DNA of 64,000 nt from Bacteroidota bacterium (GTDB taxonomy: Bacteria; Bacteroidota; Ignavibacteria; UBA10030; SZUA-254). Below are positions 85 through 31,714 of the stretch, in pieces. The position numbers and the translations under genes were made by a program. The DNA lies in the NCBI GenBank assembly GCA_035495255.1, contig DATJGD010000074.1, positions 318-64,317 on the forward strand. The letters run 5' to 3'. Within the stretch, counting starts at the first letter, position 1; the number at the start of each line of letters is the position of its first letter. Below the pieces are notes generated by a model. The model saw nothing but the letters and a program-made list of their open reading frames with translations. It made no database searches and was not told the origin of the DNA.

Positions 85-2889
85 ATGCGCAAGAGAATCA
101 TGCTGAGGACCCATTTCTTCCTCGTATCCATTTCCGTAGTTGGGATTCTCCTGTTACCTTCGCAATCCCCTTCACAGTGGGCACAGCTCAATGGACCCTA
201 TGGCGGAGCTGTTCTTTCGCTAAGGTATGCAAATTCAAAGATGTATGCCGGAACGACGGGAGGCCTGTGGGTGTCTTCCGACACCGGAGCCTCATGGACG
301 CAGCTCTCGCGGGGGCGAACACGACAAGTCGGAGTATTTTCTTCGGGAACAATCATCGCCGGCGAGAACCCGGATCATGTCTTTCGTTCAACGGATGGCG
401 GGGTGAGCTGGGCGCCGGTATCTCTCGGCAATCCTTCGGCAATCCTCATTTCCATCAATTTCCTTCAGGGGGATGTTGCGCTCGCAGGCGCTACGACGGG
501 TCTCTTTAAATCTGTTAATGACGGGCTCACGTGGTCGCAGATCACGACGGGCCTCCCATCCGGGGAAGTCGACGCAATGGCGGTTGATTCCTCCGGCCGC
601 CTGTTTCTGACAAGCGGAGTCGACATATACCGTTCAGCAGACACCGGCGCGTCCTGGAACAAAGTTTATCACGATCCCAATAATCATTCCGTGCGATCAA
701 TTGCGGCTACCTCGTTGGGAAGCGTTTTTGCTGCTCAATACGGCGGAGGTGTTCTTCGCTCAACTGACGGCGGCGTAGTATGGACTCTCCTCAATCCCAC
801 GTTCAGCAATACGTACCAGTCCATTTGCTCAACCCCCTCCGGCGCCGTTGTTGCCGGTCTCGATGGCGGGGGGATGGTACGAACGACTGATAATGGTACA
901 ACATGGACTGACCTCTTGAGGCCTACGTATTATCAGATAATGTCACTCATGTCCGGCGCAGCCGGCGACATATTTGTCGGCTCGGCGGGTGCCGGGGTCT
1001 TCCGTTCCTCCGACCTCGGCTCAACCTGGAGTTCCATCTCTAACGGCATGGCTGCGACGAGCATTGCATCACTCTGCGTCATTCCGGGCGGGACATCTGT
1101 GGCAGCACGTCTGGGTGACGTGTTCCGGTCTACCGACAACGGGTTAAACTGGACTAACAGAGAAATTGATGTGGTCGACTACAACCAAAGCTCTGTCATT
1201 CGAAGTGACTCAGGGAACTACTTCTTTGCCAACTCGTATGGGGTCTACCGTTCGACTGACGACGCACTCACCTGGACAAGCGTGAGCGGCAGTATCGGAT
1301 TCGACTTTTATGGCCTTATCACAACAGCTGAGGGTGCTATCCTTGCCGGCAGCCGATACTTGTATCGATCCTCGGACGAAGGTGCAACGTGGGCGATGGT
1401 ACTTTCTGACCCTGTCAGCACCTACGATTTTGCCAGGTTGCGGACAGGCGAGCTGTTTGCAGGCACGGCCGCAGGGATCTACCGTTCAACCAATGACGGC
1501 CGCAGTTGGCAGGCGTTCAGCGATAGCTTCCACACCAGGTATGTCGCCTCGATCGTTGTCTATGGTGACAGCACGCTCTACGCCGGGATCGGCGGTCAGA
1601 CCGGCGGAATCTATCGTTCTACAAATCACGGAAGCTCATGGAAGTTAGTTTTCCACGATAACGCGTCGAATCCGGATTATCACCTGTCTATCAATCGGAA
1701 TGGTGATGTCTATGCCGCCATCTCAAGGCAGGACGTTCGCCGTTCCACGGATGGAGGATCAACCTGGAGTCTCATGAATGACGAAATCTCCGACAGGGAG
1801 CCGTTGTGCATTCAGATAGCCAAGGATCATTTTGCGTACGTCGGAACCGCCCGGGGCGGCGTGTATCGCACCGTCTCGTGGACGCTTCGCCCTCCCGACG
1901 CGCCGATCGGCCTCCGCCCGTCAAACGATACGGTGAACGCTCCGCTCAGCGTCACGTTGCGTTGGCGTGAGCAACTCGCCGCGGACACATACCATCTTCA
2001 GGTATCCACCGACTCACTCTTCGCATCAAATATCATCGTCGATGACTCGGCCCTGAGCGTTTTGTACCGTGAGGTATCTAACCTTATTCCCGGCGTACGC
2101 TACTTTTGGAGATTGAACGGAACCAATGAAGCGGGGACGGGACCCTTTTCTGAAATCTGGCATTTTACAACGATGCCTCCTCCCGCAATCGTAACCTTAG
2201 TTTCTCCGGCAAACGGGGCGATGCTTCCCGGGGACAATGTTGCAGTTGTCTGGAAGAAGAGCTTCCCCGCCGTCACGCGGTACTGGGTCGAGTACGGATC
2301 TGACTCCCTTTTCCTGAACTCGGTGGTGGATTCTGCCGTCGTCGACACGCAACAACATCTTTCCGGATTCGGACTCGATACGACGTATTGGTGGAAGGTG
2401 CGTGCGTACAATGCATCGGGGTGGGGTGGGTTCAGCGAACTCCGCCGGTTCTCCCCTTTCACGACCGGCATCGATGTACGGCCTGCCTGGAATATGGTCT
2501 CCGTACCCCGCACCGTTTCTGATTACCGTAAGACTGTCCTCTTCCCGACCGCATCATCAAGCGCCTTTGCATATGATACTTCGGGATACGGAACTGCAGA
2601 CACGCTCATGAACGGCAAGGGATATTGGGTGAAATTCCCTTCGAGCAACGTAGTCGCTATCACCGGATCGTCAAGAACAACCGATACTATATCTGTGAAT
2701 GCGGACTGGAATCTCGTCGGAACCATTTCGGTCCCGGTTCCCGCCACTTCCATCCTTTCAATCCCCGATGGAATTTTGGCGAGCGGTTTCTTCGGATACA
2801 GCACAAGCTATTTTACAGCGGATACATTGAAGCCGGGGGGCGCGTATTGGGTGAAGGTGAGTTCTCCGGGGAAGATAATTTTGAAGTAG
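85..2889 (+). CDS. secreted Asp-box (BNR) repeat beta-propeller protein with two FN3-like domains and a C-terminal duplicated GWN..GYWVK module
   Basis: N-terminal signal peptide; ~13 repeats of S/T-x-D-G-x-S/T-W (STDGGVSW, SADTGASW, TTDNGTTW...); FN3-like segments (LRWRE..YHLQVSTD, VVWKK..YWVEYGSD); C-terminal 138 aa paralogous to C-termini of 11542..13809 and 17892..19409; no T9SS CTD. Confidence 0.75.
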   Translation: MRKRIMLRTHFFLVSISVVGILLLPSQSPSQWAQLNGPYGGAVLSLRYANSKMYAGTTGGLWVSSDTGASWTQLSRGRTRQVGVFSSGTIIAGENPDHVFRSTDGGVSWAPVSLGNPSAILISINFLQGDVALAGATTGLFKSVNDGLTWSQITTGLPSGEVDAMAVDSSGRLFLTSGVDIYRSADTGASWNKVYHDPNNHSVRSIAATSLGSVFAAQYGGGVLRSTDGGVVWTLLNPTFSNTYQSICSTPSGAVVAGLDGGGMVRTTDNGTTWTDLLRPTYYQIMSLMSGAAGDIFVGSAGAGVFRSSDLGSTWSSISNGMAATSIASLCVIPGGTSVAARLGDVFRSTDNGLNWTNREIDVVDYNQSSVIRSDSGNYFFANSYGVYRSTDDALTWTSVSGSIGFDFYGLITTAEGAILAGSRYLYRSSDEGATWAMVLSDPVSTYDFARLRTGELFAGTAAGIYRSTNDGRSWQAFSDSFHTRYVASIVVYGDSTLYAGIGGQTGGIYRSTNHGSSWKLVFHDNASNPDYHLSINRNGDVYAAISRQDVRRSTDGGSTWSLMNDEISDREPLCIQIAKDHFAYVGTARGGVYRTVSWTLRPPDAPIGLRPSNDTVNAPLSVTLRWREQLAADTYHLQVSTDSLFASNIIVDDSALSVLYREVSNLIPGVRYFWRLNGTNEAGTGPFSEIWHFTTMPPPAIVTLVSPANGAMLPGDNVAVVWKKSFPAVTRYWVEYGSDSLFLNSVVDSAVVDTQQHLSGFGLDTTYWWKVRAYNASGWGGFSELRRFSPFTTGIDVRPAWNMVSVPRTVSDYRKTVLFPTASSSAFAYDTSGYGTADTLMNGKGYWVKFPSSNVVAITGSSRTTDTISVNADWNLVGTISVPVPATSILSIPDGILASGFFGYSTSYFTADTLKPGGAYWVKVSSPGKIILK

Positions 2890-3108: not shown

Positions 3109-3339
3109 ATGAAATTAAAGATTGTGATCTTAATTGCGTTCCCTTCCATTGCATTCGCGCAGGGGGATAGATGGCTGCCGACAAATGGCCCTTTCGTAAA
3201 CGGAAGAACGATTCGTTCCTTGTGCATTGACTCGAGCGGAATAATTTTTGCAGGCGCCCTGAACGATCGCGTGTATTTCTCACGACCCCAACCACAGCAT
3301 CCGTCCTCTGGGATGAAACAAGACAGCCGGGCATCATGA
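3109..3339 (+). pseudogene. possible remnant of a BNR-propeller paralog (signal peptide plus first blade only)
   Basis: MKLKIVILIAFPSIAFAQGDRWLPTNGPFVNGRTIRSLCIDSSGIIFAGALNDRVY parallels the N-terminus of the 85..2889 protein (QWAQLNGPYGGAVLSLRYANSKMYAGTTGGLWVS); ORF ends after 76 aa. Confidence 0.3.
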
Positions 3340-5724: not shown

Positions 5725-7914
5725 ATGTACAAACGCATTGTATTGCTGACTATTCTTGTCGGATGCCTTGTTGTGCTTCCCACAACGATCTTCTCCGACG
5801 AAGGAATGTGGCTTCTCACACAGCTCGACAAGCTTCCCTGGGCGCACATGAAGCAACACGGCCTGGAGCTCACTCCCGAACAGATTTATAACCCGAATGG
5901 AACGAGCATCACCGATGCGATCGTCCTCTTCGGCGGCGGAACAAGCTCGTTCGTTTCAGCCGACGGGCTCGTCCTGACGAACCACCACGTCGCCTTCTCC
6001 GCGATTCAATCGGTCAGCTCCGTCCAGGAAGATTATCTGAAGGATGGATTCTATGCCGAGACCCGCGACAAAGAACTTTCTGTTCCGTCCTACACGGCCC
6101 AGATTGTCATCGGCATTAAAGATGTCTCGTCGGAAGTCCTAAGCGCAGTGAGCGACACAATGTCGGCCGAGGCCAGAGCGAAAGCGATCACGGCAAAATC
6201 GCGCGAGATCGAAAAATCTGCCAAAGGCACGAGCGACAACGAATGCCGCATTTCCGAAATGTACTTCGGCGTGAAATACATTCTTTACACGTATGAAGTT
6301 CTGCGCGACTGCCGCCTCGTCTACGCCCCTCCGACTTCCATCGGCAACTACGGCGGCGAGATCGACAACTGGTACTGGCCGCGTCACACGGGCGATTTCT
6401 CGTTCATGCGCGTCTACACGGGCCCGGACGGAAAGCCGGCGAAGTATTCGAAGCAGAACGTTCCGTATAAACCGCGGACATTCCTTCCTTTTTCAATTTC
6501 GGGACTTAATGAAGGCGACTTCGCCATGATCATGGGCTTCCCGGGACGCACATTCCGCTACCGCACCTCCATGGAAATCCAGCTCGCGAAAGACGAAACG
6601 CTTCCGCTGACGATGGATATATTTAAGACGCGGATGGATATTATCGAGGCGGGCGGAAATAATAACCGCGCGGTGCAAATCCAGTATGCCAGCAAGTGGC
6701 GAGGAATGGCAAACACCTATAAAAATTACGAAGGGGTCCTTGAAGGGATGAAGCGGTCCGATATCATGAAAGAACGGACGGCGGTGGAGGCGGATTTTAC
6801 GAAGTTTCTCGCCGCAAAGCCCGAGCTGCAGGCCAAATACGGCAACGTCATGAAACAGATCGCGGACAACTACGAGACGCTTAAAGGATTCAGCCGGAAG
6901 CAGGTGGTGATGGGCGCGCTGCTGAGCGCCACCGATCTGGTGCAGGTCGCACTCCGGTTCAACAACTTTGCCGGGGCGTTTGTGAAGGATTCAGTGTCGG
7001 GTAAGATGAAGCCGACTGACGCGAGCGTCGCCGACATGAACGATTTTCTTGCGGGAGTGTTCAAGAACTTCGACCTCACTGTCGATAAGGACCTCCTCGC
7101 CGCAATGATTACGAAGGCGGGAGATCTGCCCGCAGGCCAGCGCATTGCCCGCGTCGACAAAATCGTCGGCCAGCACACCGGCGAGGGCTTAAAGAAATCG
7201 GCCCGCGAGTTTGTGGATGATCTTTACAAACACGGCAAGATCACCACGCTCGAGGATTGCATGAACCTCATGAAGAAATCCGCCGACGACATCAAGGATA
7301 ACGACTTCGTGAAGTTCGCGGTTGACCTTACGACAGAGAATACCCCGCTTCAGGCTCAGGCGGCGAGCTTTAACGCCAAGATCGGGCTTGCGCGCGCGAG
7401 ACTTCTCGAAGCGTGGATGGCATGGAAAGGCCCCGACATTTATCCGGATGCCAACCGCACACTCCGGTTAACCTACGGAGAAGTGAAATCGTATGACGCC
7501 CGCGACGCGGTGCACTACAAATACGAGACAACGCTCGGCGGCGTGATGGAAAAAGAGACCGGCGTCGATCCGTTCATCGTTTCGCCGAAGCTGCGCGATC
7601 TGTGGGAGAAAAAGGATTTCGGACAGTACGCGGACAAGAAGGTCGGAGACGTGCCGGTGGCATTCCTGGCGAACCTCGACATTACCGGCGGCAACTCCGG
7701 CAGCCCCGTCATCAACGGCAGAGGCGAGGTCATCGGGCTTGCGTTCGACGGCAACTGGGAAGCGGTGGTCGGAGACTACCTCTACCAGGACGAGCTTAAC
7801 CGCTCGATCAACGTCGATTCGCGGTATATATTGTTCGTGTTGGATAAGTTCTCCAACGCACGCACCCTCCTGAACGAACTCAGCGTGAAGGACGGCCAGC
7901 GGTCCATGAAGTAA
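5725..7914 (+). CDS. S46 family dipeptidyl-peptidase (DPP7/DPP11-like serine peptidase)
   Basis: signal peptide then the hallmark DEGMWLL N-terminus of mature S46 peptidases; catalytic-serine motif GGNSGSPV near C-terminus; ~720 aa typical length. Confidence 0.9.
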   Translation: MYKRIVLLTILVGCLVVLPTTIFSDEGMWLLTQLDKLPWAHMKQHGLELTPEQIYNPNGTSITDAIVLFGGGTSSFVSADGLVLTNHHVAFSAIQSVSSVQEDYLKDGFYAETRDKELSVPSYTAQIVIGIKDVSSEVLSAVSDTMSAEARAKAITAKSREIEKSAKGTSDNECRISEMYFGVKYILYTYEVLRDCRLVYAPPTSIGNYGGEIDNWYWPRHTGDFSFMRVYTGPDGKPAKYSKQNVPYKPRTFLPFSISGLNEGDFAMIMGFPGRTFRYRTSMEIQLAKDETLPLTMDIFKTRMDIIEAGGNNNRAVQIQYASKWRGMANTYKNYEGVLEGMKRSDIMKERTAVEADFTKFLAAKPELQAKYGNVMKQIADNYETLKGFSRKQVVMGALLSATDLVQVALRFNNFAGAFVKDSVSGKMKPTDASVADMNDFLAGVFKNFDLTVDKDLLAAMITKAGDLPAGQRIARVDKIVGQHTGEGLKKSAREFVDDLYKHGKITTLEDCMNLMKKSADDIKDNDFVKFAVDLTTENTPLQAQAASFNAKIGLARARLLEAWMAWKGPDIYPDANRTLRLTYGEVKSYDARDAVHYKYETTLGGVMEKETGVDPFIVSPKLRDLWEKKDFGQYADKKVGDVPVAFLANLDITGGNSGSPVINGRGEVIGLAFDGNWEAVVGDYLYQDELNRSINVDSRYILFVLDKFSNARTLLNELSVKDGQRSMK

Positions 7915-8142: not shown

Positions 8143-11100
8143 ATGAAACACTTTACCGCGTTGTCAAATGTACCGACCCGAATCAATTTAATCGTTCTTA
8201 TCCTCTCGGCAGTCTTTCTTGCCACCGCCACTTCTGCCGATCTGCAGCAGCAATCCCGGGTTGCGTTCAAGCAGCGCGCCATGGATGCTGCCCAGCAGAT
8301 GAAAGAACTCCGGCAGGCCCTTCAGGTTTCAAAGCAGCACCCGCGAGGCATTTCAGCGGAGCGCGAAGAGGTCGGCATCCGGATCAACAGCAAGACGCAA
8401 ACCTCCTCGACGATCTTCTTCTATGATAACATGGAGAGCGGAACGAACGGCTGGACGACACTCGCGTACACCGGCTCCGATCTCTGGCACCAGACGTCGA
8501 ACAATTGGCTCTCGTCAAGCCACAGCTGGTGGCCGGGCCTCGACGGGCAGTCTAATTACGACAACGGCAGCCGGATCAACGGCGCTGTCATCTCCCCCAC
8601 GATCAATCTCACCGCCGCGGTCGCTCCCATATCCCTCCTCTTTGGAGAAAACTACGCGACCGAGCGTGGCTGGGATTATTGCATGGTCGATGTCAGCACC
8701 GACGCCGGGGCAAACTGGACACACCTGCGGGGTGGCTACGGTTCGGCTCCCGCCGGAAGCAGCGACGGATGGATCATCTCGACACTGGATCTGTCGGCCT
8801 ACGCCGGCCAAAACATTCAGATCAGATTTTATTTTGACACCGGCGACCAGAATTTCAACGAGTTCCCGGGCTGGTTCGTCGACGATGTCGTCATCTTCGA
8901 TCAGGGCGGACAGATTACCGGCAAGAAATTTTTCGATGTTAATAATAACGGCATCAAGGATGTCGGAGAGCGCGGCGTCAAGAACTGGCTTATCACAGCC
9001 GAGGGGCCGATCTCATTGACGACAAAAACGAACTACCGCGGGCGCTACTGGCTCACGCTTCCGTTGGGATCCTACACCGTCTCGGAAACGTTCCAGCCGA
9101 ACTGGACACAGACCTATCCGCTCTCGGGCACCTGGTCGCTCACGCTTTCGACCCCTGATACGCTCATCGACAGCGTGCATTTCGGCAATTACATCAACGC
9201 AAGCTTCATCAACGGCAGGAAGTTCCACGATCTCGATAAGGACGGCGCGTTCAACAACGCCGACACATTGATCCCTGAGTGGAAGATCCTTCTCTGCGAT
9301 ACCAACGGCGTCCAGCTTGACTTCGACCGCACTGATTCACTCGGCGAATACTCGCTCTACATTTTCGAGCCGGGAACGTACGTCGTGAAAGAAGTAGAAC
9401 GGAACGGATGGGTACAATCCGCGCCCGTAACAGAGACCTACAAGATTACGATCCCCGACCTTAATACCGACAGCAACGGCAATGATTTCGGAAACTACTA
9501 TTCTCCGTTGACGAACTCCATCCTCGGAATGAAGTTCAACGACCGCGACAGAAGCCATTCATTTACAGCGGGAGAGGAAGGAGTCGAAGGATTCAAGATA
9601 CAATTGTACAAGAAGGGCAACGGCAACAATTACAACCTGTACAAGACGAGGACAACCGACAGCAGCGGGATGTATCAGTTCTCCAGCCTGCCTGCCGATA
9701 CCTACCGGGTCAAGGAAATCCCCCGCCAGGGTTGGTGGCAGTCGTATCCCGACTCGTCGTGGTCGCTTACCCTCAACGACGGCGAAACGCTTGACAGCGT
9801 CGACTTCGGAAATTACGAGATCGTCACCGGATCGGTGAGCGGGCTGAAGTATAACGACCTCAACGATAACGGAAGCATGGATACGAACGAAACGGGACTC
9901 CAGGGCTGGAATATTCTTCTGACCGGGTCGACATATTTTAACGCGTCGGTGAGCCAGTCGTTGTACACCGACGGGAACGGCAACTACTCTTTCAGCGGCA
10001 TTTGGCCCGGCAGCTATGTCGTGAGCGAAGTGTGGCACTCAGGATGGAGACAGACCGAACCTGCGAATCTGGGGCCCCATTTTGTTAACCTCGATGTTGA
10101 GGAAAACAGAACCGGTGTAAATTTCGGGAATGTCCAGGACAGCACGTTCAGCGTGTCGTTCAGAACGTTCAAACCTGAGAGCCTCGCATTTGCCCTCGAC
10201 CTCAAAGGCAAGCATAAACCTGTTCTCACAAAGGCGATCAATACGCAATTCTGGGAAACTATCAGGAACACATATCCGGATTCAGCGATAAGCGCCCGGA
10301 TCAAGTTTAAGTATGCGTACCAGCCCGGTACGCTTGTCGTCCGGCCCGGAGTTACGATAACGCCGGTGAGCGATAAGAACAAGGTAATCGACCTGACATT
10401 CTCTCCTGCATTACAGCCCAACGATACCGTAACGGTTTCCGGATTTACCAAGAAGGCTGTCGTGTGGGTCGACCCCGTGTATACGTTGAACTTTAACGAC
10501 TCATCAAAGAGCGGGAATTGGTGGTCGCACACGGCATACATGAGATCCGCAATGCCGAACGCCGTCAACTTGCTCGAAAAGGTCGGGGTCGGATTGAAGG
10601 TTGGGCTTGGCGGTCCGCACAGCGTGGTTCATTTGGGCTGGAAGAACGTCATTAGTTCGTTGTTCATAAAGCCCGATCGAATTCATATCGGCGATCCGCG
10701 TTGTCTCGATTTCTACGCGGGCACAACGAAGTCTATCAAGAAGCAGCAAAAATATCTTACACCGACAAAAGGAAACAACAAACTGTTTTCCGAGCTGATC
10801 GCGCTGCAGGCGAATATTCGCGGAAGCGACCTGCTTGTTCTGCCCGGCGGATTCGGCAATCTTGTTTTTGACGATACGACCGGCGGCGGTACCCAGATAA
10901 ATGGACTGACGATACGGGAAATCGCCGCCAAAGCAGACAGCTTCATGTCGTCGTATAAAGATACCGTGCCGGCAATCCCGTGCAACATGCCCGAAGGCCT
11001 GGCAACATATACCGTGAACCAGCTGTACGAAAAGATCCGCATGATCGACAGCGTCTTCTCAGGTCCGGTCGATACGGTCAGCTTCTCGGGGAGCGGCGGA

Positions 11101-11520
11101 CTGAAATTTACGCCGGTGGCCCCCCTCTCATCGGTTCCGTTCCTGCGGTTCGATCCGCTTGCAGCGCAGCGGGCAGGATTCATTTCCTTGCCGCCGCAAA
11201 CCGGGTACGCGGTACCGGATGTCTTCGCGCTGAACCAGAATTATCCGAACCCGTTCAATCCGACGACGACGATTTCATTCACCTTAAGCCAGCCATCGCT
11301 CGTGACGGTGAGAGTCTACAATATCCTGGGCCAGGAGGTCGCGACGTTGGTCAGCCGGCAGGAAATGGAGGACGGCGATCAGGAGGTGGAGTTTAACGCG
11401 AACAATCTGCCGTCGGGCGTTTACTTCTGCCGGCTCGTCGCGGAAGGAATTCCGGACGATGACGAAGGGATCACGGCAACAACGTTTACGGCGATAAAGA
11501 AGATGTTGCTCGTAAAATAA
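8143..11520 (+). CDS. T9SS-sorted giant surface protein: MAM-like N-domain, ~7 SdrD-B/Cna-B-type repeats, conserved unknown C-region, T9SS C-terminal domain
   Basis: signal peptide; N-domain ends GWFVDDVVIF (MAM-like GxIAIDDI ending); repeats with DxNxNGxxDxxE (FFDVNNNGIKDVGE, FHDLDKDGAFNNAD, YNDLNDNGSMDTNE); C-terminal NYPNPFNPTTTISFTL..YNILGQEV..KKMLLVK = T9SS (Por) CTD. Confidence 0.85.
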   Translation: MKHFTALSNVPTRINLIVLILSAVFLATATSADLQQQSRVAFKQRAMDAAQQMKELRQALQVSKQHPRGISAEREEVGIRINSKTQTSSTIFFYDNMESGTNGWTTLAYTGSDLWHQTSNNWLSSSHSWWPGLDGQSNYDNGSRINGAVISPTINLTAAVAPISLLFGENYATERGWDYCMVDVSTDAGANWTHLRGGYGSAPAGSSDGWIISTLDLSAYAGQNIQIRFYFDTGDQNFNEFPGWFVDDVVIFDQGGQITGKKFFDVNNNGIKDVGERGVKNWLITAEGPISLTTKTNYRGRYWLTLPLGSYTVSETFQPNWTQTYPLSGTWSLTLSTPDTLIDSVHFGNYINASFINGRKFHDLDKDGAFNNADTLIPEWKILLCDTNGVQLDFDRTDSLGEYSLYIFEPGTYVVKEVERNGWVQSAPVTETYKITIPDLNTDSNGNDFGNYYSPLTNSILGMKFNDRDRSHSFTAGEEGVEGFKIQLYKKGNGNNYNLYKTRTTDSSGMYQFSSLPADTYRVKEIPRQGWWQSYPDSSWSLTLNDGETLDSVDFGNYEIVTGSVSGLKYNDLNDNGSMDTNETGLQGWNILLTGSTYFNASVSQSLYTDGNGNYSFSGIWPGSYVVSEVWHSGWRQTEPANLGPHFVNLDVEENRTGVNFGNVQDSTFSVSFRTFKPESLAFALDLKGKHKPVLTKAINTQFWETIRNTYPDSAISARIKFKYAYQPGTLVVRPGVTITPVSDKNKVIDLTFSPALQPNDTVTVSGFTKKAVVWVDPVYTLNFNDSSKSGNWWSHTAYMRSAMPNAVNLLEKVGVGLKVGLGGPHSVVHLGWKNVISSLFIKPDRIHIGDPRCLDFYAGTTKSIKKQQKYLTPTKGNNKLFSELIALQANIRGSDLLVLPGGFGNLVFDDTTGGGTQINGLTIREIAAKADSFMSSYKDTVPAIPCNMPEGLATYTVNQLYEKIRMIDSVFSGPVDTVSFSGSGGLKFTPVAPLSSVPFLRFDPLAAQRAGFISLPPQTGYAVPDVFALNQNYPNPFNPTTTISFTLSQPSLVTVRVYNILGQEVATLVSRQEMEDGDQEVEFNANNLPSGVYFCRLVAEGIPDDDEGITATTFTAIKKMLLVK

Positions 11521-11541: not shown

Positions 11542-13809
11542 ATGCCCGCATATTTGATCGATCGGAAGACAATACTTGCAATCGCGGGGATGATAGTTCT
11601 CATCCCTGCGATGCTGTTCGCCCAGAAGACATCGCGAACTGCGGCTCAACTGCGTTCGCTGGAGCACGAACACTCCGAAGGCACATACATCACCGTCCCC
11701 ACATCGCAGCAGAAGCTCTCGCCTGCGTTCACACTCTCCTCCTCACGGTTTTTTATGACGCAGGTAAACGTCGCCGGCGGCGCGAACATCTTGGGCGATG
11801 CCGCGAACGAACCGTCGATCGCCATCGATCCGAACGATTCGAACAGAATAGCGATCGGTTGGCGGCAGTTCAATACTGTGGCGGATAATTTCAGGCAGGC
11901 GGGCTGGGGATATTCCACCAACGGAGGACAGACCTGGACATTCCCCGGGGTTATCGAGCCCGGCATTTTTCGCTCAGATCCCATTCTTGAAGCCGATGCG
12001 AACGGAAATTTCTACTATAATAGCCTTACCACCAAGCGAAGCAATTTTTCCTGTGATGTTTACAAATCGACGAATGGCGGGGCGGCGTGGGACACGGGCC
12101 ATCAGGCATGGGGAGGGGACAAAGCATGGATGGTGATCGACCGGACGGATACAGTGGGCAAAGGAAACATTTACTCTTTCTGGACTCCCGGAGTGGGGCC
12201 GAGCATCTGCCCGACCGGTTCCTTCACACGCTCGACAGATGACGACGAAACGTATGAAGCCTGCTCGATCATTCCCGGTTCGCCGTTCTGGGGAACAATG
12301 GCGATCAAAAACAACGGGACGCTGTTCATCGGCGCTCACGGCGATACGAGCTTCATCGTCACCAAATCGACTTCTGCCCGCGACTCCGGAGCGACCGTCA
12401 CGTGGGACACTCTCGCCCCGGTGAACCTGGATGGCGACATTGTCTACGGTTCAGCGCCGAATCCGGGGGGGATTGCGGGACAGACCTGGATCGCGATCGA
12501 CAATTCTTCCGGCCCGACAAAGGGCAATATCTACCTTCTCTGTTCCGTTCAGCGGAAGTCCACTTCAGATCCCCTCGACGTCATGCTCGCGCGAAGCGTT
12601 GACGGCGGATTGACGTGGGGGCCCCCTGTCCGCATCAACGACGATACAAGTTCGACCGCGATGCAATGGTTCGGCACGCTGGCGGTCGCGCCGAACGGGC
12701 GCATCGACGTGATCTGGCTCGACACGCGCGACAATCCCGGAACCGTGATGTCTTCGTTGTATTATTCGTTTTCGAACGACGGCGGACTATCCTGGTCGAC
12801 CAACGAACGGCTGTCGGGTTCCTTCGACCCGCACGTCGGCTGGCCGCAGCAAAATAAGATGGGTGACTATTTCCACATGATCTCCGAGAACGACGGCCCG
12901 CGGTTTGCCTGGGCGGCGACGTTCAACAACGAACAGGATGTCTACTTCGGGCGCATCAATGAAAGCTCCGGAGCGGTTGGAGGCACCAGGATCATCGTCG
13001 CAGGTGGATGGAATCTTCTCTCGGTGCCCGTCACTGTGGGGAATTACGCAAAGGCCACCCTCTTCCCTACGTCGACATCAAGCGCTTTTTGGTTCGATGG
13101 GAACGCGTACGCACAGCAAGACACGCTGGCGAACGGCCTTGGCTACTGGCTCAAGTTCGCTAACCCGGAATCCGTCATCGTTAACGGAGACCCTATTGCC
13201 AGCGAAACAGTCGGCGTAAGCGCCGGGTGGAATCTTCTTGGAACGATCAGCAGCTCAACTCAGGCAGCAAACATCACATCCTCTCCTCCGGGCATCGTCA
13301 CATCACAATTTTTTGGCTACAACGGACAATATTTCAGCTCGGCGAACCTGCTTCCCGGAAGAGGATATTGGGTAAAGACAGACCAGGCGGGAAGCCTTAC
13401 GATTTCGAGCTCTTCGGCGATGCAGACCGCGGCATCTATCCGCATTGTGCAAACATCGGAGCTGCCACCGGTGCCTCCGGATAGAGGCCCGGCCTCAGGC
13501 GCCCCTTCAGTATTCCGGCTTGAACAGAATTATCCCGACCCATTCAACCCATCGACGAAAATCTCGTTTACACTCAGCCATCCTTCCGTTGTCACCATTA
13601 CGCTCTATGATATTCTCGGACGCCAGGCTGCGGTGATCATGGAGAGAAAGCTAATGAATGAAGGGACCCATGAGATCACCTTCGATGCTGGAAATCTTGC
13701 CTCCGGCATCTATTTCTACCATCTGTCCGCGAACGGACAGCCTGGTTCCGCTGATGGATATTCTGCGGAGAATTATACGGCGGTCAAAAAGATGGTCCTC
13801 TTGAGGTAG
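11542..13809 (+). CDS. T9SS-sorted BNR/sialidase-like beta-propeller protein with GWN..GYWVK module
   Basis: signal peptide; Asp-box motifs (YSTNGGQTW, YKSTNGGAAW, RSVDGGLTW, FSNDGGLSW); duplicated GWNLL..GYW(L/V)K module at 13004-13410; NYPDPFNPSTKISFTL..KKMVLLR T9SS CTD; starts 22 nt after the 8143 gene. Confidence 0.8.
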   Translation: MPAYLIDRKTILAIAGMIVLIPAMLFAQKTSRTAAQLRSLEHEHSEGTYITVPTSQQKLSPAFTLSSSRFFMTQVNVAGGANILGDAANEPSIAIDPNDSNRIAIGWRQFNTVADNFRQAGWGYSTNGGQTWTFPGVIEPGIFRSDPILEADANGNFYYNSLTTKRSNFSCDVYKSTNGGAAWDTGHQAWGGDKAWMVIDRTDTVGKGNIYSFWTPGVGPSICPTGSFTRSTDDDETYEACSIIPGSPFWGTMAIKNNGTLFIGAHGDTSFIVTKSTSARDSGATVTWDTLAPVNLDGDIVYGSAPNPGGIAGQTWIAIDNSSGPTKGNIYLLCSVQRKSTSDPLDVMLARSVDGGLTWGPPVRINDDTSSTAMQWFGTLAVAPNGRIDVIWLDTRDNPGTVMSSLYYSFSNDGGLSWSTNERLSGSFDPHVGWPQQNKMGDYFHMISENDGPRFAWAATFNNEQDVYFGRINESSGAVGGTRIIVAGGWNLLSVPVTVGNYAKATLFPTSTSSAFWFDGNAYAQQDTLANGLGYWLKFANPESVIVNGDPIASETVGVSAGWNLLGTISSSTQAANITSSPPGIVTSQFFGYNGQYFSSANLLPGRGYWVKTDQAGSLTISSSSAMQTAASIRIVQTSELPPVPPDRGPASGAPSVFRLEQNYPDPFNPSTKISFTLSHPSVVTITLYDILGRQAAVIMERKLMNEGTHEITFDAGNLASGIYFYHLSANGQPGSADGYSAENYTAVKKMVLLR

Positions 13810-13992: not shown

Positions 13993-16900
13993 ATGACGAC
14001 CTCTTGTGCTGCATTCCATAAATATGCTGAAGATCTGTTCTTGAAGATCATTTGCCTGCTTGTTTTCATCACAGCGGGATATTCAGTTTCTTCCGCAGCT
14101 GAGGCACGATTGCAGTCTCGCGGTACGGAAAATCGCGCCGCCGCCGCCGCACGTCAGCTTCGGGATTACAACAATCGCATCGCAAACGGGAAATCGGACG
14201 CATTCAGCCGGCCAAGCCAATCCTCGCGGCCGCCATTTAATAACATCGCCGCTTCATCGTCGACGATCTTCTTCTTCGACGACATGGAAAGCGGGACGAG
14301 CGGTTGGACCGTCGGAACTCATACCGACAGCGCGGTCTGGCATCAATCGACTCTTGCAGCCAACTCGCCGACACACAGCTGGTGGGCCGGCATAGAGGCT
14401 CAGGGAAATTACAACACCGGCACGCGAGTTTCAGAGCGGCTGATCTCGCCCCCCATCCCGCTCACAGGAAGCGTGGGAAGCGTATCCGTATTGTTCACGG
14501 AGAATTATGTGACCGAGCGGGGCTGGGATTTTTGCATGGTCGACGTGTCGACTGACGGCGGCTCCTCATGGGTTCATCTGCGCGGAGCTTACGGGTCTTC
14601 TCCTTCCGGCGACAGTTACGGCTGGAAGGTCTCTTCGCTTGATCTTACTCCGTACGCCGGCCAGACCGTCAATCTGAGCTTCTTCTTCGATACCGGCGAC
14701 TCGATTTTCAACGCGTTCCCGGGCTGGTTCGTCGATAATGTCGCGGTGTTCGACCAGTCAGGCATCGTGGGAGGGATGGTTTACCTCGACATGAACCAGG
14801 ACGGTGTGTTCCAGGGTGTGGAGGTCGGGCTCGCCGGACGGCCCATTCAAATAGCCGGCCCGGTAACTCTCACGGCCACGACAAACGACGACGGCACGTA
14901 CGCACTGCGGCTCCCGCTCGGCTCCTATGATATCTCCGAGATTGTCCCTTCTCCATGGATACTCACCTCGAGCCCTGCCTCGTGGAACGCGAATCTCACG
15001 GTTCCCGATCAGACGATTAATAACCTGTCGTTCGGCAATTACAGATCGGGTAGCCTTCTCAGCGGTACTGTCTTCGACGACATCAACATGGATGGCGTGA
15101 AGGATATCAGCGATCCGGCGCTCCCCGGCGGATATCTCGAGCTCAGGGACTCGCTGGATGATTTGGTGAGCGATGCGTATACCGATACGTCAGGGGCGTA
15201 CAGCTTTTTTGTCTGGAACAGCGGCACCTATTACGTCGCGCATTATCCGGAGGACGGCTGGGTTTCTACAGTCCCGGGTGGGAGCACTCCAACGTACGCC
15301 GTAGTCGTTCCCTCTACTGACACGCTTATTAACGGACTTCTCTTCGGTGAATTTTTCAATGCGTCGCCCGGCGACTCAGGCATAATTTCGGGATGGGTTT
15401 TCGACGACCTGGACCACAACGGAACGCAGGATGACCGCGAGCCTTTCCTATCGCAACGAGTGATTTCGCTCTATCTTTCCGGGGACTTTTTCAACAATAC
15501 AACCACAGATTCGGCGGGAAAATTTTCCTTTACCCATCTTGCCCCGGGAACATACACCGTAGAGCTTGACCCGCTCTACCGGTGGCAGCAGTCGACACCC
15601 GACAGCTTCTACATATTTGCCCTTGCGTCGGGCCAAACGAGGGACAGTGTCATCTTCGGTTCCTATGAGCTTCCTGCAGGTACGGTCCGGGGAACAGTGT
15701 TCAACGACCTGAACCGGAACGGGCAAAAGGACACGCTTGAACAGGGACTTTCGGGCTGGATCGTCTCCGCGCTGGGGCCGGGCAGCTTTTCTGTCGATGC
15801 GGTAACTGACTCTGCGGGAAGGTATTCGCTGAACAATGTGGTCATCGGCCCTCATACCGTCGCGCTCCACCAGCGGGACCAATGGGCCCAGTCCTCTCCG
15901 CCGGGCTCACCCTGGTCGATTTCTCTTTCGGCGCTCGAAATTAGGGACAGTATTGATTTCGGCGTCTATGCTCTCCTTCCCGGCACGATCACCGGGACTG
16001 TGTTTAACGATGCCGACAAAAATTCCGCACGCGATCCGGGAGAGGGGGGACTCGCCAACATGCAGATCCGGCTTGAGGGGGCGGCAACAGGGACGACGAG
16101 CACCAACGACAGCGGGTACTTTCAATTCACCGGGCTGTGGTCCGGGCCGTACACTGTTCGCCTTATTCCAAGCTCGAACCGCCGCCAGACATTACCCGCC
16201 ATGCTGCTTCCGCACCAGGTAAACCTGGGCGATGAAGAGCATCATGCCGGGACGGACTTCGGCGTCGCCTTCGATTCTACATTCAATATCGTCTTTCGGA
16301 CATTTCTGCCGGAGAGCCTCGCCCTGCCGCATGACAGCAAAGGGAAGACAGGCAAAGCGGAGAAGAAAAAGCCCTATGCAAGCGAGGCGACATTCGATTT
16401 GGTGACGCCTGTGGGAGGGCTCACCGGCCTGCATGTGGAGTTTGGCCAGAACCTTCTGCCGGGAAGCCTGACGATAAATTTCTTTACCTCACAAGTACCT
16501 GACGGAGCCTTGCGAAAGTGGAACTTTGCGATGCCGGGGGACGATACTCTTGGCAGCGGAGATCATGTCGTGATATTTGCCCGGGGCAACAAGGGCAAAA
16601 CCCTTCTGATCTCAAAATATTGGTGGATCAGGGGAGCGGAGAACCCGGCAATCGGAACCCAGGCAGTGCGGTCGACGAGTGGAAACGGAAGGCTCCTGCT
16701 GCTGATGCCGAACACGATGAACATGCTCGATGAGGCGTATGCCCGTTTGGGGAATTTGAGCCCTCTCACCATCGGCCTCGGCGGTGCGCACTCGGTCTTC
16801 CAGGTAAAGTCGGCAGACGTCTGGAAATCGCTTCTCGACAAGCACGGGATGCACATCGGCCCACCGAGATGTCTCGGAGTCTATGCAACCACCCTGAAAC

Positions 16901-17655
16901 CGATCTCCCGGTTTATTAAGACCCTGCCCCCGACAAAAGGGAATAATGTGATGTTTGCGGAAATGCTCGCCCTCAAGGTCAACCTGCTCGCAAGCGAACT
17001 CTGGTTAACGCCGCCCGGACTCGGATATCTGCGGTTTGACGAAGGCTCTGCGAACAGATTTAACGGATTGAACATTTACCAAATCGCCGGACAACTCGAC
17101 ACCGCGATGTCTTCGTTCGACGACATTTCCAAAACCTGCCTTTATGACAACGCGTTTTTCGACGAGGCATACCGCACGATCCGCATGATCGATTCGGCGT
17201 TTTCAGGTCCGTTCGATACGCTCTCCTACGCGAGTGTCATGAATCTGACGCCGGTGCGGAATTTGTCGGATGTCGGATTTTTACACCTCGATAGCAGCGC
17301 CGCTTCTGCGGCCGCTCACCTCCGCCTGAACGCGAAGGCCGCTCCGCTGCCGGAAGTTTTTCGCCTTGAACAAAATTACCCGAACCCGTTCAATCCCACG
17401 ACGACGATCGCGTTTACGCTGCCGCAACCCTCCCTCGTCACCCTTACCGTCTATAATATACTTGGGCAGGAAGTGGCGAGCCTCCTGAACCGGGAGGAAA
17501 TGGATGACGGCGATCAGGAAGTTGCGTTCGACGCAGGCAGCTTATCCTCGGGCGTGTATTTCTATCACCTGAAGACGGAAGTCATGACAGATGAGGATCA
17601 GAAGATCGTGGGACAAACGTTTTCGGCGGTACGGAAGATGCTGTTGGTGAAGTAA
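13993..17655 (+). CDS. T9SS-sorted giant surface protein, paralog of 8143..11520
   Basis: same architecture and colinear motifs (STIFFFDDMESGTSGWT; GWFVDNVAVF; SdrD-B repeats FDDINMDGVKDISD, FDDLDHNGTQDDRE, FNDLNRNGQKDTLE; C-region GLGGAHSV..PTKGNN; NYPNPFNPTTTIAFTL..RKMLLVK). Confidence 0.85.
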   Translation: MTTSCAAFHKYAEDLFLKIICLLVFITAGYSVSSAAEARLQSRGTENRAAAAARQLRDYNNRIANGKSDAFSRPSQSSRPPFNNIAASSSTIFFFDDMESGTSGWTVGTHTDSAVWHQSTLAANSPTHSWWAGIEAQGNYNTGTRVSERLISPPIPLTGSVGSVSVLFTENYVTERGWDFCMVDVSTDGGSSWVHLRGAYGSSPSGDSYGWKVSSLDLTPYAGQTVNLSFFFDTGDSIFNAFPGWFVDNVAVFDQSGIVGGMVYLDMNQDGVFQGVEVGLAGRPIQIAGPVTLTATTNDDGTYALRLPLGSYDISEIVPSPWILTSSPASWNANLTVPDQTINNLSFGNYRSGSLLSGTVFDDINMDGVKDISDPALPGGYLELRDSLDDLVSDAYTDTSGAYSFFVWNSGTYYVAHYPEDGWVSTVPGGSTPTYAVVVPSTDTLINGLLFGEFFNASPGDSGIISGWVFDDLDHNGTQDDREPFLSQRVISLYLSGDFFNNTTTDSAGKFSFTHLAPGTYTVELDPLYRWQQSTPDSFYIFALASGQTRDSVIFGSYELPAGTVRGTVFNDLNRNGQKDTLEQGLSGWIVSALGPGSFSVDAVTDSAGRYSLNNVVIGPHTVALHQRDQWAQSSPPGSPWSISLSALEIRDSIDFGVYALLPGTITGTVFNDADKNSARDPGEGGLANMQIRLEGAATGTTSTNDSGYFQFTGLWSGPYTVRLIPSSNRRQTLPAMLLPHQVNLGDEEHHAGTDFGVAFDSTFNIVFRTFLPESLALPHDSKGKTGKAEKKKPYASEATFDLVTPVGGLTGLHVEFGQNLLPGSLTINFFTSQVPDGALRKWNFAMPGDDTLGSGDHVVIFARGNKGKTLLISKYWWIRGAENPAIGTQAVRSTSGNGRLLLLMPNTMNMLDEAYARLGNLSPLTIGLGGAHSVFQVKSADVWKSLLDKHGMHIGPPRCLGVYATTLKPISRFIKTLPPTKGNNVMFAEMLALKVNLLASELWLTPPGLGYLRFDEGSANRFNGLNIYQIAGQLDTAMSSFDDISKTCLYDNAFFDEAYRTIRMIDSAFSGPFDTLSYASVMNLTPVRNLSDVGFLHLDSSAASAAAHLRLNAKAAPLPEVFRLEQNYPNPFNPTTTIAFTLPQPSLVTLTVYNILGQEVASLLNREEMDDGDQEVAFDAGSLSSGVYFYHLKTEVMTDEDQKIVGQTFSAVRKMLLVK

Positions 17656-17891: not shown

Positions 17892-19409
17892 ATGGCTAAA
17901 TTGTGTTTTGTCGTACTGCTTGTCGCATTGCTGGCCGGTCTGAGCACCGGAACTCAAGCTCAAACGATCACGTGGACCGGAGCCGGCGGCAACAATCAAT
18001 GGTTTTTTCCCGAGAATTGGGACCAGATGAGAATTCCCAATAATTTCGACGACGTGTATACGACCGGAGGGGAAATAAACGCCCCGATGGGCGGCTTGAC
18101 AGTCTACATCCGCTCCCTGCATGTCGGGCCCGGCAGCCTGCTTCTTAACGGAGTGCCGCTTACCATTACCTCGGACCTTGTCATCGATTCGAACGCAACC
18201 TTTGGAGGAGATTTCAGCCTCCTGACAGTGGGAGGCAACATGGTTATCAACGGCCAGCTCAACGCAGCCACATTGAACGCCCCTGAGATACATTGCGGCG
18301 GAGACTTTCTCCCCCGAACACCCTCGTCCTTTATCCCAGGAATTTCGACCGTCTATTTCTCGGCGACGTTCGGATACTTCAGCGGGCAATTCCACAATCT
18401 TCAGTTCATCAATGGCGGCGAGCGGCATTCAAACGGAAACGCCTGGGTCAGCGGAGTCTGCCAGATCGACGACGATATCTATCTGAGGCCGGAGGATACC
18501 CTGTACATTCAGGATACCGCGAGCACGGCCATCTACGGAAATGGGACCGTCGGTGACGGGGCGGTCTCGCGCGCCATCAACCCGGGATCCACCGACAGCT
18601 ACCGCTTTGAGAGCATCTCTACATATGTTCAGTTCAATGGAACCGGCACCTACCCGTCCGCCATCCTCATGCGCACGCATCCGAACGAAACTGCCGCGAC
18701 GTGCTTCGATGTGTGGCATCCGCTCACGAGCACAGTGAATCCCGCGCAGAATATTGTTACGACGCAGGGAGTTCACACGCTCGGCAATTGGGCGATCGGG
18801 GTGCGTAATTCGACGTCGCCTGTGATCAACCGCTATTTTGAAATGCAGGCGAACGGCGGCAGCTCTTTCAGCTGCAAGGTTTCGTTGCGGTACGAGAATA
18901 CCGAAATACCCGGCGGAACTCATGAAGATTCTCTCGTGATCCTGCGGTCCGATGCCATCTCACCGCCAATCGCGAATGCCCCGGGCTGGAACCTTGTCTC
19001 GATACCAACATCCAGAACTTCCTGCAACTTGAAAACAGATTATTTTCCCAATGCGGGATCGCCGGCATTCGCGTTCGACGGCAACACTGGCTCGTATCAG
19101 TCGAAGGATACGCTGGTTCCGGGCGTTGGATATTGGGTCAAGTTTGCGAGTTCCGGCACGCATGCCGCGCCGGGGCTCGAACGGCTCAGCGATACAATCC
19201 AGGTCTATCCGGGCTGGAACATGATCGGAGGATTGAGCAAGCCGATCGCGACGTCGGCGATTGTAACGATCCCTGCCGTCGGTTTGATCAACAGCCCCTT
19301 CTTTTCCTATGAGGGAAGTTACACCGCAGCCGATACGCTCGAACCGGCGAAGGGGTATTGGGTAAAGATCAGTTCCCCCGGGGGATTAATGATACTCAAT
19401 GGGAACTAA
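17892..19409 (+). CDS. secreted protein with C-terminal duplicated GWN..GYWVK module
   Basis: signal peptide (LLVALLAGLSTGTQAQT); C-terminal APGWNLVSIP..GYWVKF..GWNMIGG..GYWVKISSPG paralogous to C-termini of 85..2889 and 11542..13809. Confidence 0.7.
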   Translation: MAKLCFVVLLVALLAGLSTGTQAQTITWTGAGGNNQWFFPENWDQMRIPNNFDDVYTTGGEINAPMGGLTVYIRSLHVGPGSLLLNGVPLTITSDLVIDSNATFGGDFSLLTVGGNMVINGQLNAATLNAPEIHCGGDFLPRTPSSFIPGISTVYFSATFGYFSGQFHNLQFINGGERHSNGNAWVSGVCQIDDDIYLRPEDTLYIQDTASTAIYGNGTVGDGAVSRAINPGSTDSYRFESISTYVQFNGTGTYPSAILMRTHPNETAATCFDVWHPLTSTVNPAQNIVTTQGVHTLGNWAIGVRNSTSPVINRYFEMQANGGSSFSCKVSLRYENTEIPGGTHEDSLVILRSDAISPPIANAPGWNLVSIPTSRTSCNLKTDYFPNAGSPAFAFDGNTGSYQSKDTLVPGVGYWVKFASSGTHAAPGLERLSDTIQVYPGWNMIGGLSKPIATSAIVTIPAVGLINSPFFSYEGSYTAADTLEPAKGYWVKISSPGGLMILNGN

Positions 19410-19449: not shown

Positions 19450-20586
19450 CTACCCCAACCTGCTTTTGAACCTCCACACGCTCAGCGTAAGCACGCTGAC
19501 TCCGATCACGAACAGCGCAACAGCCTGCGGCCACAGCTCTGCGAGGCCGGAACCTTTCAGGAACAATCCCCGCACAATCTCCAGAAAATATCTCAGCGGA
19601 ATAAGGTACGTGATGACTTGAATTATCTTCGGCATGTTCGAAATCGGAAATGTAAAGCCCGAGAGATAGATGAAGGGCATGAAGAAGAAGAACTGAGCGA
19701 TGAGCATCGCCTGCTGCTGGGTTTTTGCGATCGTCGAAATGAACAGGCCCAATCCCAGCGTCGTCAGGATAAACAGCCCGCTGAGAAACCAGAGCGTCAG
19801 CAAATGGCCCCGCAATGGGACTTCGAACCAATAATGCGCGACGCCGAGCACCACCATGACGTCGATGAACCCGATAATGACAAATGGGATAAGCTTCCCG
19901 ATGATGAGTTCGTACGGTTTTATCGGTGTGACAAGAAGCTGCTCGAGCGTTCCCACCTCTTTTTCCCGCACAATACCGAGCGACGTCATCGTCATCGTGA
20001 TGATCATGAGCACGAACGCGACGACCCCGGGCACCATATAGTCCGTACTGGTGAGATCGGGGTTGAACCAGACGCGCGGCTCGGGAAGCACTCTTCCGCC
20101 GGGGGGCGGCCGTTTCATCAGCGAGTTTTCGATCACAACTGTTCTTGCGTACTGTCCGACGATCTGGTTGGCATACCCCAGGAGGATATTTGCCATGTTT
20201 CCGTCGCTTCCGTCCATGATCATTTGCACCTGGGCGGTGCGGCGGGCAGCGATGTCATTCCCGAAATTTACCGGAATTATCAGAGCGACAGCGGCCTTGC
20301 TCTTCTCGATGTATTCATTGACGTCGTTCGGCCCCTTGACCTGGTATTTTAAATCGAAATATTCAGAGTTCGTAAACTGCTCGATGAACTCCCTGCTCGT
20401 CGCTGTGCGGTCCATGTCGCAGACCACCATCGTGCCGTGCCTGATGTCGGTCGTAGCGGCATAGCCCAGAAGAAAGACCTGCATGACCGGCGCCACGAAC
20501 GACGTGATCATCATGCGTCGGTCCTGCCGGATCTGGTAGAACTCCTTCTTGACGATTTCGAGTATGATTTGAATGCTCTTTTTCAT
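19450..20586 (-). CDS. ABC-2 type transporter permease (YbhS/YbhR-like)
   Basis: N-terminal cytoplasmic segment, large periplasmic loop, six C-terminal TM helices; typical ABC-2 family layout. Confidence 0.85.
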   Translation of the reverse strand: MKKSIQIILEIVKKEFYQIRQDRRMMITSFVAPVMQVFLLGYAATTDIRHGTMVVCDMDRTATSREFIEQFTNSEYFDLKYQVKGPNDVNEYIEKSKAAVALIIPVNFGNDIAARRTAQVQMIMDGSDGNMANILLGYANQIVGQYARTVVIENSLMKRPPPGGRVLPEPRVWFNPDLTSTDYMVPGVVAFVLMIITMTMTSLGIVREKEVGTLEQLLVTPIKPYELIIGKLIPFVIIGFIDVMVVLGVAHYWFEVPLRGHLLTLWFLSGLFILTTLGLGLFISTIAKTQQQAMLIAQFFFFMPFIYLSGFTFPISNMPKIIQVITYLIPLRYFLEIVRGLFLKGSGLAELWPQAVALFVIGVSVLTLSVWRFKSRLG

Positions 20587-31433: not shown

Positions 31434-31714
31434 TGGGCAGAACCGTACCGACATTTACGAATATCATCGATGCCGAGCTGGCGTCATGGGGAAAGTACCG
31501 CCGGGGATTGCGAAAGAAGGACCAGGAGACGTTCGACGAGATGTTCCGCGCCGCGAAACAGCATCTCGCCGAAAACTTTTACGCGATGCGCACGATCCCG
31601 TTCGAAAGCATCATCGTCTCGCTCGTCCTGGAACAGCACAAGCGCATCAAACAACTTGAACAACGGGTGGCGGAATTAAAAAATGACGCAAACGATCAAC
31701 GGATGGCTCTTTGA
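31433..31714 (+). CDS. small hypothetical protein (93 aa) translationally coupled between the ImuA-like and polymerase genes
   Basis: TAATG overlap with the upstream gene, 32-nt overlap with the polymerase start; C-terminal coiled-coil-like KQLEQRVAELKNDANDQ. Confidence 0.35.
   Translation: MGRTVPTFTNIIDAELASWGKYRRGLRKKDQETFDEMFRAAKQHLAENFYAMRTIPFESIIVSLVLEQHKRIKQLEQRVAELKNDANDQRMAL

Follow-up and report, generated by a model that had tools for sequence, protein, structure and literature searches.

An internally duplicated, unannotated module in secreted proteins of Ignavibacteria-like Bacteroidota, usually found before a type IX secretion sorting domain

A stretch of 64,000 nucleotides from a Bacteroidota bacterium of the Ignavibacteria lineage (assembly GCA_035495255.1, contig DATJGD010000074.1, positions 318 to 64,317), hereafter called the window, encodes three putatively secreted proteins, designated A, B and C, which share an unannotated module of about 140 amino acids (aa). 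In protein B the module lies ahead of a type IX secretion system (T9SS) C-terminal sorting domain (CTD), and in proteins A and C it forms the C-terminus itself. The features concerned are the following:

85..2889, plus strand: protein A, 934 aa, with a BNR/sortilin-type propeller, two fn3 domains and the C-terminal module (Pfam matches in the N-terminal parts only)
2473..2886, plus strand: module copy A, aa 797-934 of protein A (half 1, 2473-2682; half 2, 2683-2886)
11542..13809, plus strand: protein B, 755 aa, a weakly BNR/sialidase-like T9SS cargo protein with module, linker and CTD
12979..13407, plus strand: module copy B, aa 480-622 of protein B (half 1, 12979-13203; half 2, 13204-13407)
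13408..13479, plus strand: conserved module tail in protein B, aa 623-646, SSSAMQTAASIRIVQTSELPPVPP, a SIRIV strand and then the start of a Pro-rich linker
13531..13806, plus strand: T9SS CTD (type A) of protein B, with the Pfam match at aa 664-732 and the domain reaching the stop
17892..19409, plus strand: protein C, 505 aa, a hypothetical protein without Pfam or NCBIfam match over its whole length
18978..19406, plus strand: module copy C, aa 363-505 of protein C (half 1, 18978-19190; half 2, 19191-19406)

A hidden Markov model (HMM) built from the three copies and run against all six-frame open reading frames (ORFs) recovered exactly three modules of ~140 aa in the window, with E-values from 1e-70 to 1e-74 (copy A, 8e-74; copy B, 7e-72; copy C, 1e-70), all spanning HMM positions 1-138, and the next-best match reached only E 0.2. 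Copy A constitutes the last 138 aa of protein A and copy C the last 143 aa of protein C, with no CTD after either of them. An earlier interpretation of the DNA letters, which we refer to as the sequence-only reading, had placed the module in these three ORFs, and it is present in the translations of all of them; the coordinates then given for copy B (13004..13410) covered the right stretch but ran one base out of frame. Pairwise identity among the copies is 41-48% at the protein level and 47-52% at the DNA level, indicating that they are old paralogous domains and not a DNA repeat.

Proteins A, B and C have exact matches at NCBI (HTK82711.1, HTK82718.1 and HTK82720.1), which the Prokaryotic Genome Annotation Pipeline named 'YCF48-related protein', 'T9SS type A sorting domain-containing protein' and 'hypothetical protein', respectively, so that the module carries no annotation in the NCBI record. 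All three proteins are predicted to be secreted, judging by eye from their signal-peptide-like N-termini and, for protein B, also from its CTD, which matched PF18962 (Por_Secre_tail) with 31.5 bits (cutoff 27), TIGR04183 with 31.7 bits and a local CTD HMM with E 1e-27. The local HMM detected only three T9SS CTDs in the window, none of them in A or C.

The module is composed of two homologous halves of ~70 aa. Half 1 and half 2 aligned to each other in hhalign with a probability of 99.2 and E 3e-19 when 242 sequences were used, and with 98.6 and E 9e-16 when only 8 sequences were used; these profile alignments indicate that the module arose via internal duplication of a ~70-aa unit. The half-repeats had been described as sharing GWN, LFP..AF and G.GYW.K motifs: GWN and G.GYW.K are indeed common to both halves, whereas LFP..AF.YD is limited to half 1, and half 2 carries P.GI.TS.FFGY in its place. 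The invariant or nearly invariant residues mirrored across the halves are W-N, Y, D-T and G-x-G-Y-W-x-K. The family is defined by W-N near the start and G-x-G-Y-W-x-K near the end of each half, both found in all three copies, and the invariant columns of the window copies recur in 38-76 homologues.

An exhaustive search, in which an eight-sequence profile was scored against 1.84 billion representatives of 50%-identity clusters, retrieved 12,634 clusters at E<=1e-3, 6,931 at E<=1e-10 and 3,264 at E<=1e-30, from a profile of 237 positions that includes some flanking columns, so that the weakest matches are perhaps not all due to the module; the matches listed do align to module positions. A single-sequence, word-indexed search found few relatives. 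Where the carriers are named, they are 'T9SS type A sorting domain-containing' or 'hypothetical' proteins from Ignavibacteriae, Ignavibacteriales or Bacteroidota metagenome-assembled genomes (MAGs). As far as the sequence records tell, the family is found mainly in Ignavibacteria-like Bacteroidota MAGs, within bacteria of the Fibrobacterota-Chlorobiota-Bacteroidota (FCB) group. When GTDB genome representatives were scanned, a set that does not include the genome of the window, relatives came from one Ignavibacteriales MAG and one labelled Chlorobiaceae, the latter with three adjacent giant proteins that each contain the module (locus L001).

A divergent branch has longer loops and VLxSIxGxY replacing LFP..AF, and its full module aligned to that of the main branch with an hhalign probability of 99.5 and E 7e-23. 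It includes small proteins as well as P0008, a Cloacimonadota protein of 3,424 aa in which five modules are combined with PKD domains and a dockerin, and the branch gave no consistent Pfam match (22 members) and no match in the Protein Data Bank (PDB). The C-terminus of P0008 is a type I dockerin and not a T9SS CTD. In members of this branch (P0008, P0254 and P0275) we also repeatedly observed an unannotated unit, YGxVxxDGxPAxxGxxIxAFxxxGxxCGxxxxxxxGxYGLLxCYGDD.

The domain architecture of the family was tabulated from 243 retrieved homologues, and the partner domains from 64 long ones. A T9SS CTD lies C-terminal to the module in 186 of the 243, and the distance between the end of the module and the start of the CTD is 30-49 aa in 160 of these and 120-199 aa in the other 26. 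In 19 of the 243, as in A and C, no more than 12 aa follow the module, and among the other 38 are entries from truncated contigs and proteins whose module is close to the N-terminus. About ten residues past the module, most CTD-bearing members (P0006-P0243) carry the motif RIRIVPTxELPPxPP (aa 632-646 of protein B, 13435-13479), which may represent a docking strand plus stalk, or an element related to processing; in the two T9SS proteins of the window that have no module, it does not precede the CTD. A few homologues have two modules, arranged in tandem or split between the start of the protein, directly behind the signal peptide, and the region ahead of the CTD, and in some others the module is N-terminal to a Fib_succ_major domain, without a CTD. 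Small module-terminal proteins sit within gene clusters of T9SS cargo.

Among the long homologues, PF18962 is present in 59 of 64, and the commonest partners are Sortilin/BNR/PSII_BNR propellers (19 of 64), followed by FlgD_ig, LamG, FG-GAP, Kelch, SBBP, beta-helix and SdrD_B domains, a diversity that is typical of a mobile accessory module. No classical glycoside hydrolase (GH), polysaccharide lyase (PL) or carbohydrate esterase (CE) domain was found among the 25 most frequent partner families.

Two further units were noticed in these proteins. The 26 homologues with a long gap (P0009, P0013, P0024, P0056, P0065 and P0126, and those of L001, among them) contain an extra unannotated domain of ~100 aa before the CTD, with the motifs ITDxxGxxQxLYF and FDLPPSPPxGFDVRF. 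In 20 of the 243 (P0003, P0010, P0013, P0024 and others) a unit of ~50 aa without Pfam match, HPWWVVDxGGGxSxSGxxxLxxSIGQP…LExGYIPG, is located between the signal peptide and the module.

The frequent association with the CTD raises the question of whether the module belongs to the sorting signal, which the sequence-only reading had denied, and our comparisons agree with that denial. The module and its halves (242 sequences) were compared with an alignment of 178 CTDs from the same proteins, and hhalign returned a probability of only 0.1-0.3%; PF18962 and TIGR04183 gave no match at E<=1 to the module, to protein A or to protein C. That the module or its half 2 could be a disguised T9SS CTD was rejected on the basis of hhalign, of the CTD HMMs and of the architecture, given that a full CTD usually comes after the module. 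We also considered whether A and C could be frameshifted proteins that had lost their CTD, and this was ruled out: the local CTD HMM found no CTD remnant or CTD-like ORF 3' of A or C in any frame, and an independent copy of protein A from the Joint Genome Institute (JGI) is equal in length, which argues that the module-terminal ending is genuine.

A broader form of this idea is that the module is, or contributes to, a signal for outer-membrane translocation or attachment, being either an extended 'long' T9SS signal or the alternative signal of the CTD-less proteins A and C. The module and the type A CTD are both beta domains found in the C-terminal region of the same proteins, and the module ending, GYWVKVxxxGKIILK, superficially recalls CTD motifs D and E, the described motifs being B, D (GxY) and E (a basic residue) (PMC11969387). 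The 19 homologues that end at the module would also fit such a role, and short three-strand CTDs are known to function in Prevotella. However, module and CTD have no profile similarity, the CTD models miss A and C, a complete CTD is C-terminal to the module in most proteins, and the module is N-terminal in some proteins and occurs in the dockerin-ending Cloacimonadota protein, all of which makes a translocation signal very improbable.

Searches of curated libraries, namely a 2025 copy of Pfam-A (24,736 models) and NCBIfam 20.0, gave no match to the module for the window copies at E<=1. When 38 diverse module sequences were scanned against Pfam (E<=10) and NCBIfam, only scattered single matches with nothing consistent were obtained; Pfam models of carbohydrate-binding modules (CBMs) or lectins matched none of the 38, nor any of 22 divergent members, even at E<=10, and GW/SH3 models were not among the Pfam matches of the 38 at that threshold. 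Similarly, phmmer and hmmsearch with one sequence and three profiles detected no module match among all PDB chain sequences, and we found neither the motif strings nor an Ignavibacteria T9SS-cargo domain of this type described in the literature searched. The suspicion that the module falls outside the known Pfam families therefore holds for both libraries, and none of the profile and structure searches that were run identified the module with confidence as a known CBM or as the CTD.

Structure prediction with AlphaFold2 (AF2) for the 143-aa module of protein B from eight sequences reached a predicted local distance difference test (pLDDT) score of 95.7 in the best model, with the five models in disagreement (42 to 96). 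For module, linker and CTD together, with a 76-sequence alignment, all five models scored 89-90, and pLDDT was 94-98 across copy B. In the prediction the module is an all-beta domain: each half has six to seven strands, to which half 1 adds a single short helical turn. Ten residues past the module, SIRIV makes a beta bridge (pLDDT ~96); disorder is predicted for the Pro-rich linker (pLDDT 45-58), and a seven-strand sandwich, distinct from the module, for the CTD. That the module is a chance resemblance or a low-complexity artefact, to which we give practically no credence, is refuted by the E-values of 1e-70 within the window, by the thousands of homologues and by the confident, reproducible AF2 model.

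Comparison of the module model with the PDB by Foldseek gave a best E of 0.13 with a template modelling (TM) score of ~0.2, the weak matches being to cupin, cNMP-binding and EF-Tu-type barrels, none of them significant; no CBM, no SH3-like fold and no significant Ig-like match was found. The model of module plus CTD matched only generic Ig sandwiches, attributable to the CTD. The absence of a structural relative is valid only at the sensitivity of Foldseek against the PDB. In BFVD there was a sole significant neighbour, A0A8D9C8P8 (587 aa, from an uncultured marine phage; Foldseek E 1.4e-5, TMq 0.76, 17% identity), which is probably a divergent homologue and whose name, 'putative hemin binding protein', is uninformative on the module. 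Two module types, run by tblastn against 50,697 phage records, gave no phage relative, nor did a scan of IMG/VR, and in view of this the assignment of the A0A8D9C8P8 contig to a phage may be doubtful.

Taken as a domain, the module constitutes a new and well-supported family that is large, closely tied to the T9SS cargo of Ignavibacteria-like bacteria and possibly novel in fold. It joins the accessory modules that secreted multi-domain proteins are already known to carry, and does not amount to a system of a new kind. Judged from its sequence distribution and predicted structure, it is an autonomous, internally duplicated, all-beta extracellular accessory domain, mobile among passengers and unrelated to the CTD, with which it is usually inherited as a cassette.

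Regarding function, it is reasonable to suppose that the module is a non-catalytic, putatively glycan-binding or surface-proximal domain, which would contact an envelope polysaccharide or a substrate and so hold or orient the passenger. We favour this proposal tentatively, at a little short of an even chance, because W-N, Y, D-T and G-x-G-Y-W-x-K are conserved alike in the two halves, because the module is promiscuous in its fusions and because there are proteins consisting of little but the module. The glycan or cell-surface binding put forward in the sequence-only reading is plausible, and the fixed position before the CTD, which went unremarked there, points at least equally to a surface-proximal or cassette role.

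We postulate the following course of events. The module is carried by what appear to be Sec-exported, mostly T9SS-dependent, multi-domain surface proteins, in a cassette of the order module, RIRIV strand, Pro-rich linker and type A CTD. The passenger would be exported via the T9SS. By analogy with Porphyromonas and Prevotella, cleavage in the flexible linker would then release the CTD, and the newly formed C-terminus would be tied to lipopolysaccharide (LPS); T9SS CTDs are removed within a flexible linker, with glycosylation and anchoring of the cargo at its C-terminus (PMC11969387). With the CTD removed in the linker, we infer that the module would become the terminal folded domain, close to the membrane at the base of the displayed protein. 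There its two symmetric halves, with conserved Trp, Tyr, Asn, Asp and Lys, would most likely bind glycan, holding or orienting the passenger at the surface, and in module-terminal proteins such as A and C the module would be the sole retention device.

Several observations weigh against this proposal. Classical catalytic domains of carbohydrate-active enzymes are rare among the partners, which are mostly propellers of unassigned function, and the fixed spacing to the CTD could merely reflect inheritance as a cassette. The N-terminal, tandem and Fib_succ_major-linked occurrences, together with the five-fold occurrence in the Cloacimonadota PKD/dockerin protein, indicate that a strictly CTD-linked role is not general, and the proposal offers no route across the outer membrane for the CTD-less proteins A and C.

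The rarity of such catalytic partners weakens the possibility that the module is a classical substrate-targeting CBM of a new family, tethering secreted enzymes to insoluble polysaccharide. Architectures combining CBM and Por domains are common in Melioribacter, whose CBM-bearing enzymes mostly terminate in a Por domain (PMC3534657), and the module resembles the CBMs on T9SS enzymes of Melioribacter roseus (PMC3534657) in being a mobile, aromatic-rich, non-catalytic beta domain of ~140 aa on Sec/T9SS-exported carriers. Fusion to BNR/sortilin propellers also agrees with a CBM, and protein A scores 164 bits, below the cutoff of 175, on the F510_1955 glycosylhydrolase model. In contrast to those CBMs, the module has no Pfam or NCBIfam CBM or lectin match and no PDB neighbour in Foldseek, is internally duplicated, keeps a fixed distance before the CTD and is joined mostly to propellers of unassigned function, and the most frequent partner families include no GH, PL or CE. 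We therefore regard a classical CBM as unlikely.

Partner domains atypical for CBMs would instead suit a ligand-free structural pedestal or folding aid, which would space or stabilise the passenger for T9SS export and display. The counterpart would be the Ig-like (IgSF) domain that the gingipains of Porphyromonas gingivalis have between the catalytic domain and the CTD. Like that domain, the module is the last folded one before the CTD linker and would be membrane-proximal in the mature, LPS-anchored cargo; it differs in belonging to another family, in having apparently another architecture, of two six-strand halves, with no significant Ig-like match in Foldseek, and in occurring also away from CTDs. 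Its constant position and spacing before the CTD, with a conserved docking strand, is what a pedestal of the Ignavibacteria type would predict, and the conserved aromatic residues might do no more than fill the cores of two small beta units. Such a pedestal accounts less well for the polar Asn, Asp, Thr and Lys repeated in both halves, for modules that are N-terminal, in tandem or in small proteins of little else, and for the retention of the module in proteins without any CTD, and we judge it rather unlikely, the favoured proposal remaining that of a binding module.

The CTD-less carriers suggest a bolder version of that proposal, in which the module has a new fold and is a self-sufficient device for surface retention or for piggybacking on the T9SS, binding either envelope glycan or an LPS-anchored protein that itself bears the module, so that proteins such as A and C, and ~8% of homologues, would still be displayed. 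A functional analogy exists in the Listeria GW and bacterial SH3b repeats, which bind the cell wall and provide non-covalent retention on envelope polymers; they too are tandem, beta-rich units of ~70-80 aa with a conserved Gly-Trp, C-terminal in surface proteins. Unlike them, the module gives no GW/SH3 match in Pfam and no SH3-like match in Foldseek, and its GW is at the start of the unit and not at the end. We consider self-sufficient retention quite improbable.

Sediments, aquifers and bioreactors harbour abundant Ignavibacteria-like Bacteroidota, which display many T9SS cargo proteins with mostly unannotated passengers. An unannotated domain in more than 10,000 protein clusters is a gap in the domain databases, and the module is a reasonable candidate for a Pfam family. 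Glycan binding by the module, whether to the envelope or to a substrate, would account for the way its carriers are held and oriented at the surface, and if the CTD-less carriers are surface-exposed, FCB bacteria would have a second, non-covalent anchoring route beside attachment via the CTD to anionic LPS (A-LPS). Even if the module were only a spacer, its definition would improve the annotation and domain parsing of thousands of proteins.

The passenger of protein C (17892-18977, aa 1-362) begins with ITWTGAGGNNQWFFPENW…, which resembles the start of P0127, a homologue of 1,384 aa that is module-terminal as well, and the likeness suggests a shared family of beta-helix-like surface proteins. 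Just 3' of protein A there is an ORF of 76 aa (3109-3339, plus strand) whose start, MKLKIVILIAFPSIAFAQ, resembles a signal peptide and whose beginning recalls a BNR propeller; it abuts a DUF2007 gene at 3336 and looks like a truncated paralogue or a gene fragment. The other neighbours of the module carriers are the following:

5725-7914: S46 peptidase
8143-11520 and 13993-17655, plus strand: two paralogous large proteins flanking protein B, with an InhA-like MAM domain, several SdrD_B/CarboxypepD_reg repeats and a T9SS CTD
ending at 19450: ABC-2 permease gene, convergent to the protein C gene

The S46 peptidase and the two InhA-like-MAM/SdrD_B paralogues form a cluster of secreted or surface proteins. 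The remaining window is ordinary chromosome, encoding GroEL, HisRS, a family B polymerase and regulators, with a uniform GC content of ~53%; the polymerase, a family B DNA polymerase of 773 aa (31683-34004, plus strand; PF00136, E 4.5e-35), lies amid housekeeping genes.

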